A stretch of DNA of 64,000 nt from a virus: positions 47,932 through 111,931 of the IMG/VR virus record IMGVR_UViG_3300025084_000007; one strand, 5' to 3'. Of the stretch, positions 47,754-63,510 are shown one piece after another (within the stretch, counting starts at the first letter, position 1; each line of letters begins with the position of its first letter). The notes beneath the pieces were generated by a model. That model was not told the origin of the DNA, searched no databases, and saw only the letters and a list, made by a program, of their open reading frames with translations. Position numbers and translations under genes: made by a program.

Positions 47754-47960
47754 ATGTATAGCCTTTGGATTCACATACGAGCATTCGTTTCTGTTGTAGT
47801 GGTGAGTTGTGCTCACCCTGTCAACTGGGAGCAGTGTGTTCGTGTGGACCAATGGTTATTGCCTGAAGTTGTCCAAGGTTATAAACTATGGACAGGACAA
47901 GAAAAAATCTATCAAAACGAAAAGCAGTATCTAAATAGTCTGGAAGACTTAGAAGAGTAG
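47754..47960 (+). CDS. hypothetical protein
   Basis: SCAHPVNWEQCVRVDQWL. Confidence 0.55.
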   Translation: MYSLWIHIRAFVSVVVVSCAHPVNWEQCVRVDQWLLPEVVQGYKLWTGQEKIYQNEKQYLNSLEDLEE

Positions 47961-59835: not shown

Positions 59836-60976
59836 ACTACAAGGAATGACCGTATTTAATAAGAACAAAGTGGACACCAAGAAGCAACCCATGTTTTTTG
59901 GTCAACCATTGGGAGTCCAACGATATGACTCCTTCAAATATCCTGTGTTTGATAAACTAACTCAGCAACAACTGGGTTATTTTTGGAGACCAGAAGAAGT
60001 ATCACTACAAAAAGATCGTGCAGATTACCAGACTTTATCGGAAGAGCAGAAGCACATCTTCACTAGTAACCTTAAGTACCAAATCATGTTGGATAGTGTA
60101 CAAGGGCGTGGTCCTGGGATGGCTTTTATACCTTACTGCAGTTTACCCGAACTTGAGTCAGCGATGACTGTATGGGAGTTTATGGAGATGATCCATAGTC
60201 GCTCCTATACCTATATCATTAAAAACGTATACTCAGATCCTACAGAAGTCTTTGATACTATCTTAGACGATGAGAAGATTCTCTCTCGTGCATCATCTGT
60301 TACTGAATCCTATGATGAATTTATTGATCATGCTCATCAGTATGACAATGGAACCATGTGGGAACTTGCAAACGAAGGTCACTATGCAGGGCAGTTTGAC
60401 CGTCGTGAACTGAAGCGTAAACTGTATCGTGCAGTTGCTAATGTCAATATCCTAGAGGGTATTCGTTTCTATACATCCTTTGCATGTTCGTTTGCTTTCG
60501 GTGAGAACAAACTCATGGAAGGTAGTGCAAAGATTCTTTCATTGATTGCTCGTGACGAGTCACAACATCTTGTACTTACTCAGAATATTTTGAATAAGTG
60601 GAAGGATGGTGATGATCCAGAGATGGAACTCATTTCTAGGGAGGAGCAATCTTGGGTAAAGAGTATGTTCCAGCGTGCCGTAGATGAAGAGAAAATGTGG
60701 GCAGAGTATCTGTTCAAGAATGGATCTATGATTGGTTTGAATGAGCGTCTGCTTCATAATTATGTGGAGTGGATTGCTAACCGTCGTATGAAAGCGATCG
60801 GTATCAAACCCATGTTTGACATTCCTGCTAAAAACAATCCGTTACCTTGGACGGAGCATTGGTTAAATAGTAAAGGCCAGCAAAATGCACCTCAAGAAAC
60901 GGAGATTGAAAGTTATGTCATCGGAGGAATCAAACAAGACGTTGAGGCAAATACCTTCGCAGGATTCTCCCTCTAA
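59816..60976 (+). CDS. nrdB: class Ia ribonucleotide reductase beta subunit
   Basis: FWRPEEV, EMIHSRSY, LEGIRFY, RDESQH and APQETE motifs. Confidence 0.98.
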   Translation: MSPAKSELQGMTVFNKNKVDTKKQPMFFGQPLGVQRYDSFKYPVFDKLTQQQLGYFWRPEEVSLQKDRADYQTLSEEQKHIFTSNLKYQIMLDSVQGRGPGMAFIPYCSLPELESAMTVWEFMEMIHSRSYTYIIKNVYSDPTEVFDTILDDEKILSRASSVTESYDEFIDHAHQYDNGTMWELANEGHYAGQFDRRELKRKLYRAVANVNILEGIRFYTSFACSFAFGENKLMEGSAKILSLIARDESQHLVLTQNILNKWKDGDDPEMELISREEQSWVKSMFQRAVDEEKMWAEYLFKNGSMIGLNERLLHNYVEWIANRRMKAIGIKPMFDIPAKNNPLPWTEHWLNSKGQQNAPQETEIESYVIGGIKQDVEANTFAGFSL

Positions 60977-61304
60977 TGATGAATGCTATAGGGCAATCCT
61001 AGACGCAGCAGAACACGGTTGGGATGACTTGTTAGATAGAGCAGACCAACCAGCAAACCCTTTCGCAGAAGAACTTTGGTTAATGGAAAAGAAAAAAGCA
61101 CAGCAACAGCAGCAAGGTGACGACATCATTGTCAATATGGATGGTGGTGTTGGTGGTAGTTGGCAAACTGCAGAACCTCAAAAGGAACGCAACACCCGCC
61201 ACAGTGTTGATAAGGGCGAAGAGTTTATTAGAAGTGGTATGACTCTTATCACAGACCTGGAAAGTGATAAGTATCTTAAATCAGCACGACGCAATTCAAA
61301 ATAA
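60885..61304 (+). CDS. hypothetical protein (start uncertain)
   Basis: Open frame overlapping the nrdB end; VNMDGGVGGSW...FIRSGMTLIT. Confidence 0.55.
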   Translation: MHLKKRRLKVMSSEESNKTLRQIPSQDSPSNDECYRAILDAAEHGWDDLLDRADQPANPFAEELWLMEKKKAQQQQQGDDIIVNMDGGVGGSWQTAEPQKERNTRHSVDKGEEFIRSGMTLITDLESDKYLKSARRNSK

Positions 61305-61307
61305 GTG

Positions 61308-61343
61308 TGCTACAATATAAATATAAGTGGTAGCGCAAGTTAC
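61308..61343 (+). promoter_or_regulatory. extended -10 (TGCTACAAT), late promoter (TATAAATA) and NtcA box GTA-N8-TAC
   Basis: TGCTACAAT 61308-61316; TATAAATA 61316-61323; GTAgcgcaagtTAC 61330-61343. Confidence 0.6.
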
Positions 61344-61349
61344 CATTTA

Positions 61350-61391
61350 CGTTCATCCCTCTTCGGGGGGACGCAAGTAAGTCGCGGAACG
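61350..61391 (+). ncRNA. glutamine-II (downstream-peptide)-like riboswitch, module 1
   Basis: P1 CGTTC/GAACG; P2 TCCCTC-TTCG-GGGGGA; junction CGCA; upstream of a DUF4278-like ORF. Confidence 0.7.
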
Positions 61392-61395
61392 GAGC

Positions 61396-61577
61396 CGTTC
61401 ATCCCATGCTAGAACTATTATTCTATACATCACTCACCTGTCAACAAGCCGATGCAATTATGTTTCGGATGAGAACAAATGAGAATATTCCCCCTGAATA
61501 TAAGGTGGAATTGATTGAGGTCATGAAGGAGTCAACTCCTGAATGCTACCCATGGGACGCACACGACTGAAGGAACG
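61396..61577 (+). ncRNA. glutamine-II-like riboswitch, module 2, with an ORF-sized P2 loop
   Basis: CGTTCA-TCCCATG...(142 nt)...CATGGGA-CGCAcacgactgaaG-GAACG. Confidence 0.6.
61406..61570 (+). CDS. 54-aa protein embedded in riboswitch module 2
   Basis: MLELLFYTSLTCQQADAIMFRMRTNENIPPEYKVELIEVMKESTPECYPWDAHD; GGAG at 61391-61394. Confidence 0.7.
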   Translation: MLELLFYTSLTCQQADAIMFRMRTNENIPPEYKVELIEVMKESTPECYPWDAHD

Positions 61578-61612
61578 GGGGAATAAACCACCCTATCTTC
61601 AGGAGTAACAAC

Positions 61613-61780
61613 ATGAACACATTACAAATGGTCAAGAAGCAGATCAATAAGGCATCTGCACTGCACAATGCACAGATCAGTCACACCTCATATCGTGGTG
61701 TTGAGTATGATACTCGTTGTGTAGAGTCTAAGGAGACTCACGGCACATTCTGTTATCGTGGTCGTACTTACAACAAATAA
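61613..61780 (+). CDS. DUF4278-family peptide (IF17 N-terminus-like)
   Basis: 55 aa with two YRG motifs (SYRGVEY, CYRGRTY); AGGAG RBS. Confidence 0.8.
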   Translation: MNTLQMVKKQINKASALHNAQISHTSYRGVEYDTRCVESKETHGTFCYRGRTYNK

Positions 61781-61802
61781 TTTATTATTTGCATACGAAC
61801 AC

Positions 61803-61827
61803 AAAGCACCCTTAGGGGTGCTTTTTT
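61803..61827 (+). terminator. Rho-independent terminator
   Basis: AAAGCACCC-TTAG-GGGTGCTTT followed by a T run. Confidence 0.85.
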
Positions 61828-61863
61828 GCTATACTAAATACTGACAACCTATACAGGAGAGTC

Positions 61864-62520
61864 ATGAAACTTTTTCTGGACTGTTCTGACCCAGAGCTAA
61901 TTGCCTCTGCCTTTGAGACTGGACTAATCGATGGAGTTACAACAAACCCCAGTCTCATGTTGAAAGCAGGAGAGGACCCTAAGCAAGTCATTAAGGAAAT
62001 CTCAGCAATCTTTCCATGGAATGCTTCAGTTTCTGCTGAAGTAGTCGGAGATACTGCTGAAGAGATGCTTGATATGGCGCAGGAGTACCTGGAGATCGGA
62101 CCAAACATTACTATCAAAGTTCCATGCACAGTCGAAGGACTGAAAGCATGTAGAGAACTAGCAGATGATGATGTGCATGTAAATGTTACACTCATCTTTA
62201 GCACAGCACAGGCAATCCTTGCTGCAAAAGCAGGAGCAACATATGTTTCACCATTCGTTGGTAGAGTATTTGACCAGCATTGGAATGGAATTTATTTGAT
62301 TGAACAGATTGCAGACGTATTTGCAACTCATCAGGTCAAAACTGAAATCCTTGGAGCATCTATCAGAGAACCTATTCAAGTATCGGATGCCTTTAGAGTA
62401 GGTGCTGATATTTGTACAATCCCACTACCCATGTTCTATCAACTCTACAAGCATATTCTTACCGACAAAGGTCTAGAACAGTTTGATAAAGATTGGACAT
62501 CACTACAAGAGAAACTCTAA
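61864..62520 (+). CDS. talC: transaldolase (TalC)
   Basis: GVTTNPSL, ITIKVP, NVTLIFS, YVSPFVGR and HILTDKGL motifs. Confidence 0.97.
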   Translation: MKLFLDCSDPELIASAFETGLIDGVTTNPSLMLKAGEDPKQVIKEISAIFPWNASVSAEVVGDTAEEMLDMAQEYLEIGPNITIKVPCTVEGLKACRELADDDVHVNVTLIFSTAQAILAAKAGATYVSPFVGRVFDQHWNGIYLIEQIADVFATHQVKTEILGASIREPIQVSDAFRVGADICTIPLPMFYQLYKHILTDKGLEQFDKDWTSLQEKL

Positions 62521-63322: not shown

Positions 63323-63475
63323 ATGAACACAGAGTTCTACGAGGCATTGAGCAATGAAGATGCGCTGTTCGATTTGTTTATCGATCAGTTACATCACTTT
63401 GCTGAATTGGAATTGGAAGAACGTAAGACTACCACTGGGTCAGTAGCTCAGATGGATAGAGCAATTCACTTCTAA
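63323..63475 (+). CDS. 50-aa acidic protein overlapping the tRNA
   Basis: AGGGAG RBS; MNTEFYEALSNEDALFDLFIDQLHHFAELELEERKTTTGSVAQMDRAIHF. Confidence 0.5.
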   Translation: MNTEFYEALSNEDALFDLFIDQLHHFAELELEERKTTTGSVAQMDRAIHF

Positions 63476-63510
63476 TGAATTGGTCGGGGGTTCGAGTCCC
63501 TCCTGACCCG
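63437..63510 (+). tRNA. tRNA-Arg(UCU)
   Basis: Acceptor GGGTCAG/CTGACCC, D arm GCTC/GAGC, anticodon arm ATTCA-CTTCTAA-TGAAT, T loop TTCGAGT. Confidence 0.95.

Follow-up and report, generated by a model that had tools for sequence, protein, structure and literature searches.

A putative tandem glutamine riboswitch with a small gene nested in its second aptamer in T4-like cyanomyoviruses

The sequence analysed here (the window) is a stretch of 64,000 nucleotides (nt), positions 47,932 to 111,931 of the IMG/VR record IMGVR_UViG_3300025084_000007, a viral contig of 111.9 kb. It belongs to a T4-like cyanomyovirus, closest to Syn33 and S-RIM12, with 92% nucleotide identity across the region described below. 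Between an open reading frame (ORF) of 139 amino acids (aa) that overlaps nrdB (60885-61304) and talC (61864-62520) there is a small cassette containing two glutamine-aptamer modules, two small genes and a terminator, the only place on the contig where such aptamers were found. The original prediction, made from the window alone, had described it as a self-contained phage nitrogen-sensing unit, and all the motifs that it listed are present at the positions it gave. The elements are the following.

61308-61316, + strand: extended -10-like element TGCTACAAT, without a -35; from its sequence a possible early or host-type promoter element
61316-61323, + strand: T4-type late promoter motif TATAAATA, recognised by sequence; late use is predicted only
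61324-61349, + strand: 5' hairpin with an 11-bp stem and GCAA loop, minimum free energy -12.4 kcal/mol, abutting aptamer 1
61350-61391, + strand: compact glutamine aptamer 1, CGTTCATCC...GACGCA...GGAACG (sub-threshold Rfam match, covariation)
61391-61395, + strand: linker GAGC, which with G61391 makes GGAG, the likely Shine-Dalgarno (SD) sequence of the nested gene (linker comparison)
61396-61408, + strand: 5' half of aptamer 2, P1/pseudoknot strand CGUUC and hairpin strand UCCCAUG, with the start codon of the nested gene (little or no variation among 105 sequences)
61406-61570, + strand: nested 54-aa gene (T4-GC 430, phrog_504) in the hairpin loop of aptamer 2, under purifying selection
61551-61577, + strand: 3' half of aptamer 2, hairpin strand CAUGGGA, core ACGCA, junction and GGAACG (drop in codon entropy, compact orthologues)
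61567-61602, + strand: anti-SD helix, CUGAAG (61567-61572, holding the UGA stop) with CUUCAG (61597-61602) (RNAalifold, covariation)
61601-61605, + strand: SD sequence AGGAG of the 55-aa gene, near-invariant in the alignments, 7 nt before its ATG at 61613
61613-61780, + strand: 55-aa gene (T4-GC 937, phrog_545), DUF4278-like, with an N-terminal helix and two YRG motifs
61803-61824 (stem; T run to 61830), + strand: predicted intrinsic terminator, 9-bp stem with 5 GC pairs, 4-nt loop and TTTTTT (terminator scan)

A DNA similarity search found the cassette region in 423 phage records. Three comparison sets were used: 22 named phages of different genera; 160 IMG/VR loci retrieved via the two small proteins, 157 of them usable and yielding 112 distinct cassettes; and 80 loci obtained with a compact-tandem pattern. 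The order of motifs was identical in all 22 named phages. It starts with CGTTCA, hairpin, GACGCAAGTAAGTCGCGGAACG, a linker of 3-5 nt and CGTTCATCC(C/T)ATG, continues with an ORF of 52-66 codons and (G/A)GGACGCA(A/C)ACGACT(G/A)AAGGAACG, and, after 25-60 nt of spacer, closes with AGGAG followed by a small gene. With the exception of a putative NtcA box discussed below, the cassette is thus conserved among related phages.

The first module is an ordinary compact aptamer. Its P1 helix is formed by 61350-54 with 61387-91 and its hairpin by 61356-61 with 61366-71. At gathering scores the sole Rfam match in the window was a tRNA and no riboswitch family was found. In sensitive mode only 61347-61399 was matched, by Glutamine-II with 24.8 bits (cut-off 33, E 6e-4) and by Glutamine (glnA) also with 24.8 bits (cut-off 35, E 5.5e-3), and the expected similarity to the Rfam glutamine models was therefore recovered for this module, although below the gathering scores. 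The P1 strands were invariant and 100% paired in the 105 aligned sequences, and the hairpin appeared among the 112 relatives in 31 distinct stem sequences, all of them fully pairing, which establishes 61350-61391 as a structured RNA of the glutamine-riboswitch type in spite of its low score. By this covariation it is identified as a real glutamine-riboswitch aptamer.

The second module had been described as another contiguous copy, which it is not. Its motifs are found far apart (CGTTCATCC at 61396, GACGCA at 61556 and GGAACG at 61572), in two halves separated by 140 nt, with the 54-aa ORF lying between the halves and overlapping both. Both halves keep all the core nucleotides in the 105 sequences and P1 of this aptamer is 100% paired. 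In the stem that joins them, UCCCAUG with 61551-61557, the first four pairs are 100% paired, one pair varying as CG (94), UG (7) and UA (4) and another as UA or CG. Furthermore, a compact aptamer 2 with a short hairpin and no gene was found in ACG-2014f, S-PM2 and at least 62 distinct IMG/VR cassettes, and the compact tandems contain 23 different aptamer-2 stems, all pairing. The ACG-2014f version reached 37.9 bits with the Glutamine model (cut-off 35) and 32.1 bits with Glutamine-II (cut-off 33). Conservation, covariation and the compact relatives together identify the second module as one real aptamer split by a 54-aa gene placed in its hairpin loop. This form, with the gene in the loop, is shared by the phage of the window and the majority of Synechococcus myoviruses.

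The start codon of the nested gene is within the 5' hairpin strand of aptamer 2, and its last five codons (WDAHD) and stop are encoded by the aptamer core and junction. Third-position entropy is 0 for codons 50-53 compared with a mean of 0.57 over codons 2-48, and these frozen positions indicate that the last residues, (W)DA(N/H)D, and the stop are dictated by the aptamer. The 112 cassettes encode 102 distinct nested proteins, and the one in the window matches phrog_504 at 2e-30. A Foldseek search against PDB gave nothing at E <= 0.001 and the ESM Atlas gave unnamed clusters only. The insert might instead be an untranslated structured RNA domain or the remnant of a mobile element, an idea that agrees with the lack of a named protein family beyond a PHROG without assigned function and with the omission of the ORF from several phage annotations. 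It is nonetheless very improbable, since the median ratio of nonsynonymous to synonymous substitution rates (dN/dS) is 0.19, column entropy in the reading frame follows codon position 3 > 1 > 2, and none of the 111 insert-bearing cassettes has the frame interrupted. Length changes are mostly of whole codons (9 of 11 protein lengths in the aligned 105, with unchanged flanking spacing), C12, P45 and C47 do not vary in the phrog_504-type alignments and only one phrog_504-type sequence lacks W50. The AlphaFold model is helical and confident, with a predicted local distance difference test (pLDDT) of 82, and the upstream GGAG goes with the presence of the ORF. The nested ORF is, on these comparisons, a real gene.

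The linker between the aptamers is always 3-5 nt long, in ORF-bearing and compact cassettes alike. It begins with GAG in 109 of 112 ORF-bearing cassettes versus 6 of 62 compact tandems (Fisher p 9e-35, uncorrected for relatedness), which fits an SD sequence kept only where there is a gene that needs it. The same GAGC doubles as the loop of an alternative hairpin, in which GAACG of aptamer 1 pairs with CGUUC of aptamer 2 and which is favoured by 2.8 kcal/mol over P1 of aptamer 1 (-14.2 vs -11.4 kcal/mol). In Syn9 (L068:454-686), S-CAM1 (L164:291-522) and S-CAM3 (L175:292-523) aptamer 1 is also split, by a 66-aa gene with two cysteines (phrog_6471) whose ATG has the same position in the stem as in aptamer 2, and both tandem aptamers carry a nested gene. 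Homology among the nested-gene families phrog_504, phrog_6471 and phrog_13397 was considered and rejected, the hhalign comparisons being not significant (E 0.02-0.06, probability 1-2%) though the two cysteines align.

It could be argued that only aptamer 1 senses glutamine and that the halves of aptamer 2 never fold together, the 5' half serving as a partner against P1, the 3' half as an anti-SD element and the nested gene as the first of a two-gene operon. The inter-module hairpin is indeed the thermodynamically preferred structure, the long-range stem has just 4-7 pairs, ribosomes translating the nested gene would separate the halves and the available tools cannot score a split aptamer. We consider this explanation unlikely because the full aptamer core is kept in both halves, synonymous positions included, the base of the long-range stem covaries and the same halves make one ordinary aptamer in the compact relatives. 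In addition, the similar splitting of aptamer 1 in Syn9, S-CAM1 and S-CAM3 would be hard to explain if a split aptamer were dead.

Downstream of the split aptamer, RNAalifold predicted from 70 sequences the helix between CUGAAG and CUUCAG, with 6-7 bp (one extra G-U pair is possible). The last two bases of CUUCAG begin the SD sequence of the 55-aa gene. In the 105 sequences 99.7% of its cells are paired and the third pair varies as GC (55), AU (37) and GU (13) without being broken in any of them, the G or A of this pair being the middle base of the nested-gene stop, UGA or UAA. The compact tandems gave the same result independently (AU 31, GC 17, GU 7 and one mismatch). The helix covaries and is the putative expression platform of the 55-aa gene. 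Another candidate, a 9-bp anti-SD pairing inside the nested ORF (61535-43 with 61598-606) that is present in the window, was discarded as a conserved element: it is 79% paired, no better than shuffles, with three positions broken in 24-83 of the 105 sequences, and may act in this lineage.

At several loci (L163:755-800, L165:863-915, L177:766-812, L182:729-775 and several from IMG/VR, such as L047, L054, L066 and L125) the distance from aptamer 2 to the 3' anti-SD strand is about 30 bases longer. The insert has a conserved ACGGATC, a covarying hairpin (CCACC-GAAA-GGTG, CCTGC-TTAG-GCAG or CAGC-GAAA-GCTG) and then GAGAAGGTTAA, and is an additional conserved RNA module.

At the other end of the unit the scan recovered the intrinsic terminator that had been predicted, and an Rfam Phe_leader match corresponds to this terminator hairpin only. 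DNA similarity with the relatives extends to about 61828-61830. Just past the terminator and before the ATG of talC (61864) there is a late-promoter-like CTAAATA (61834-61840), which suggests that talC has a late start of its own.

The 55-aa protein encoded by the last gene of the cassette matches phrog_545 at 1e-36. With DUF4278 (PF14105) it reached 22.5 bits (cut-off 25.3, E 1.5e-4), and the phrog_545 family scores 18-23 bits on this domain. In other cassettes the same slot is occupied by proteins of 39-50 aa (phrog_5049 and others) that gave 25.0, 25.3 and 27.5 bits. Residues Y27, R28, G29, Y32, Y48, R49 and G50 are invariant across both the 55-aa and the short families, and a peptide of the YRG type is always present in the compact cassettes. 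The proposed DUF4278 relationship is therefore borne out by the motifs and by the same-slot proteins, although the protein of the window itself falls below the gathering score, and we describe the cargo as DUF4278-like. The profile of the cargo family retrieved 2254 clusters, the best 120 of these 2254 being close phage-type relatives with uninformative names. The AlphaFold model of the 55-aa protein was of low confidence (pLDDT 70, predicted template modelling score 0.32).

A peptide resembling a regulator of glutamine synthetase (GS) had also been proposed, which overstates the similarity. The N-terminal helix and the DUF4278-like part take up all 55 residues, and a general Pfam scan at E up to 10 gave DUF4278 only and no IF7-like GS-binding region, no dedicated IF7 model having been run. 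Since only the DUF4278 part of IF17 is matched, and short IF17-like proteins lack the GS-binding C-terminus (PMC6212724), a GS regulator is here a hypothesis and not a finding. Database entries for the 55-aa protein are often 67-91 aa long (P0002, P0004, P0009 and others), apparently because gene callers start the frame further upstream, within the riboswitch region, which hides the leader in the annotations.

The cassette is found in very different genomic contexts. It occupies the interval between nrdB and talC in many phages, follows speD in S-PM2 and S-H9-2, is near thyX in S-CAM3 and ACG-2014f and lies amid unrelated genes in ACG-2014j, ACG-2014h and S-H38. These varied neighbourhoods support the description of a self-contained cassette with promoter, tandem glutamine aptamers, two small conserved genes and terminator, and weaken any reading based on nrd and talC, so that the suggested link between deoxynucleotide supply and nitrogen status was overstated. 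The cassette moves as a block and, in the genomes compared, behaves as a portable transcription unit of T4-like cyanomyoviruses.

As to the neighbouring genes in the window, the 139-aa ORF (T4-GC 659 in Syn33) is in a different frame from nrdB and shares 92 nt with the 3' end of that gene; it has no Pfam match and is highly variable in length among relatives. The tRNA gene is located at 63437-63510 (Rfam, 69.6 bits) and the corresponding position of Syn33 is annotated as tRNA-Arg.

Upstream of the aptamers, the predicted T4-type late motif TATAAATA is in place on the coding strand. The window has six copies of it, all on the + strand, versus 3.0 expected over both strands, and an ATAAATA motif precedes the cassette in 36 of the 112 distinct relatives. 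The extended -10 is partly kept in close relatives, as TGCTACAAT or TGCTATAAT, and a sigma-70 scan found no full promoter on the + strand. The commonest upstream type, present in most IMG/VR cassettes (for example S-PM2, L185:132-167), has TTGACT, 17 nt and TATAAT. Here a covarying inverted repeat (GGTCTA/TAGACC, GGTAT/ATACC or GGATAT/ATATCC) has the -10 hexamer in its loop and a late-like CTAAATA overlaps the -35, what looks like an early and a late promoter superimposed. Overlap with an early promoter of the sigma-70 type is frequent among the upstream regions, and transcripts from it would begin directly at the aptamer. The common denominator of the upstream regions is a late-type motif, then a hairpin and then aptamer 1.

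The 5' hairpin bears directly on the NtcA box of the original prediction, a perfect GTA-N8-TAC at 61330-61343 that was taken as a layer of host 2-oxoglutarate sensing. The motif is there, but it lies within the hairpin, with its two triplets at the base of the stem. The window has 21 copies of it and the shuffles 10.8 +/- 3.6, none of 100 shuffles reaching 21, and with about 11 matches expected by chance in each window a single one carries little weight. By the comparison among phages, both aptamers, both ORFs and the terminator are far beyond chance; the NtcA box is not. Some sites of this excess, about twice the shuffled value, may be real NtcA boxes or hairpin stems.

According to the rival explanation, the host NtcA would bind 61330-61343 downstream of the promoter and repress the cassette at high 2-oxoglutarate, the riboswitches adding control by glutamine as in gifB. 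The perfect motif and its doubled frequency in the window agree with this, as does the presence of the motif at the same place in nine relatives of the late-promoter type, some as TGTA-N8-TACA. An NtcA site overlaps the start site of an IF17-like gene of Prochlorococcus (PMC6212724) and cyanophage genomes have 1-16 NtcA sites each (PMC3037559). However, in the 55 nt upstream a GTA-N8-TAC is present in only 24 of the 112 distinct cassettes and absent from 88. In all phages with the motif here, N8 consists of two more pairs and a 4-nt loop (stems of 5-11 bp with the triplets at the base), a self-complementarity that NtcA does not require. Actually, the closest relatives (the Syn33/S-RIM12 group and another clade) have lost the motif by paired substitutions: GTA/TAC becomes GCA/TGC or ACA/TGT (GGCAGC/GTTGCC or GACAGC/GTTGTC), so that the consensus T and A disappear and the pairing is retained. 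Other clades have GGTA...TACC with spacers of 4-6 nt rather than 8. A hairpin at this position is kept in all upstream types via compensatory changes and the GTA/TAC triplets are not. This part of the original prediction was not upheld, and a role of NtcA, even restricted to some lineages, seems quite unlikely to us. Within the overall explanation given below, GTA-N8-TAC is probably a by-product of the 5' hairpin and not a conserved NtcA operator.

Host riboswitches of the glutamine-I and glutamine-II classes are translational ON switches, in which binding of glutamine favours the CGUUC/GAACG helix over an alternative fold that blocks the ribosome site (PMC6212724, PMC6698751). By analogy the phage cassette would act in the same way. 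Without glutamine, GAACG of aptamer 1 would pair with CGUUC of aptamer 2 and mask the GGAG of the nested gene, and CUGAAG(G), beside GGAACG of aptamer 2, would pair with CUUCAG at the SD sequence of the 55-aa gene. With glutamine bound, both CGUUC/GAACG helices would be locked and both ribosome sites exposed. The ribosome that ends the nested gene would stop on the UGA inside the anti-SD helix and should open the downstream site, which should couple the translation of both genes. We assign a probability of about 0.7 to this explanation as a whole, namely a portable unit of promoter region, 5' stabilising hairpin, tandem glutamine aptamers with a nested gene, DUF4278-type gene and terminator that would work as a translational ON switch.

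Several observations weigh against it. Aptamer 1 of the window falls below both Rfam gathering scores, and the split aptamer 2 is not scorable by any covariance model. Only about half of the sequences keep the ATG paired in the joining stem. The P1 strands, being invariant, give no covariation support for either P1 or the inter-module hairpin. The anti-SD helix shares only one G with P1 of aptamer 2 and could coexist with the bound fold, like P2 in glutamine-II, which weakens the proposed switching step. Finally, the contigs from marine RNA libraries (metatranscriptomes) come from relatives and span only some 61339-61797. Their extent agrees with the borders of the unit without being evidence for them; they are uninformative on starts, ends and levels, and may include DNA.

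A more elaborate, tentative version is a two-way device, which we regard as possible though less probable than not. The aptamer folded with glutamine would close the start codon of the nested gene and open the DUF4278-type gene, and ribosomes on the nested gene would unfold the aptamer and switch the DUF4278-type gene on independently of the ligand, via the UGA. If this were true, one RNA would integrate the level of a metabolite with the status of translation, the two small proteins having partly opposite or sequential outputs, and the design would be duplicated in the Syn9-like phages with a gene in both aptamers.

The cassette shares with the known glutamine riboswitches, RF01739 (glutamine-I, glnA) and RF01704 (glutamine-II, Downstream-peptide), the core CGUUCA, stem, ACGCA and GGAACG, the CGUUC/GAACG helix with a variable covarying hairpin, the tandem occurrence (PMC2864571) and the position in the 5' untranslated region before DUF4278 genes (PMC6212724). 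The 3' hairpin of module 2, which encloses GGAACG, recalls the topology of glutamine-II. In contrast to the host elements it is phage-encoded, in the window it scores under both gathering scores, its core mixes the classes (the CGCA of type II together with the AGUA of type I), and a 54-codon gene fills the loop of aptamer 2 with overlap at both ends (aptamer 1 also has a gene in Syn9-like phages). Rfam glutamine-aptamer hits have been listed in five cyanophages only (PMC9964418, Table S7). Four of these are compact tandems. The fifth, of 235 nt, is in S-ShM2 and extends from module 1 over the nested gene up to where module 2 ends. Standard annotation thus detects the cassette in only a handful of phages because its common form has a gene inserted in the aptamer.

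A close parallel in a host is gifB (IF17) of Synechocystis, which is controlled by NtcA repression and a glutamine riboswitch (PMC6212724). It shares the glutamine aptamer before a protein containing DUF4278 and, in the window, a GTA-N8-TAC near the transcription start. However, the phage protein has 55 residues and only the DUF4278-like YRG part, with no IF7-like C-terminal region found, and its NtcA motif is unconserved and coincides with a hairpin.

Short translated ORFs are also known from other leader RNAs, for instance the Mg2+ leader of Salmonella mgtA with mgtL, where regulatory peptides of fewer than 20 codons lie in the expression platform. Leaders of this type have in common with the cassette an ORF inside a ligand-sensing leader whose translation can decide the downstream helices. 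The phage protein differs in that it has 52-66 aa, is under purifying selection, fills the hairpin loop of the aptamer and has codons in common with the binding core. Tandem aptamers, those of glycine riboswitches among them, likewise place one gene behind two consecutive aptamers that bind the same ligand, an arrangement thought to sharpen the response (PMC2864571). Compared with tandem glycine, the linker of 3-5 nt makes pairing possible between the 3' P1 strand of aptamer 1 and the 5' P1 strand of aptamer 2, which suggests a coupling via mutually exclusive helices rather than by tertiary docking.

We searched 185,579 species genomes with the exact split-aptamer pattern, by which divergent host versions would be missed, and found four matches, all in contigs of metagenome-assembled genomes. 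One (L187) matches phage records such as ACG-2014h, two (L188 and L190) each match the window outside the cassette, and these three look like phage contigs binned with cellular genomes. The fourth (L189), of 1.7 kb, is similar only within the cassette and is too short to place. For this exact pattern the scan gives no evidence of the split form in cells.

In outline much of this was known: the Rfam hits in five phages, the tandem aptamers and the association with DUF4278 in hosts. What is surprising is the nested overlapping gene and the covarying anti-SD helix that holds its stop. In the literature searched we met no protein-coding gene described as having its start, last codons and stop in common with the ligand-binding core of a riboswitch. 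The cassette is a natural case of overlapping constraints from RNA structure and protein, possibly with cross-talk between riboswitch and translation. For the search of regulatory sites there is also a practical lesson, as GTA-N8-TAC matches in phage genomes can be hairpin stems and not NtcA sites. Glutamine riboswitches have been known as host devices that tune regulators of glutamine synthetase, and nearly all the sampled T4-like phages of Synechococcus carry their own tandem version with a cargo of the DUF4278 type. The cassette offers a testable handle on how cyanophages read the nitrogen status of the host during infection.

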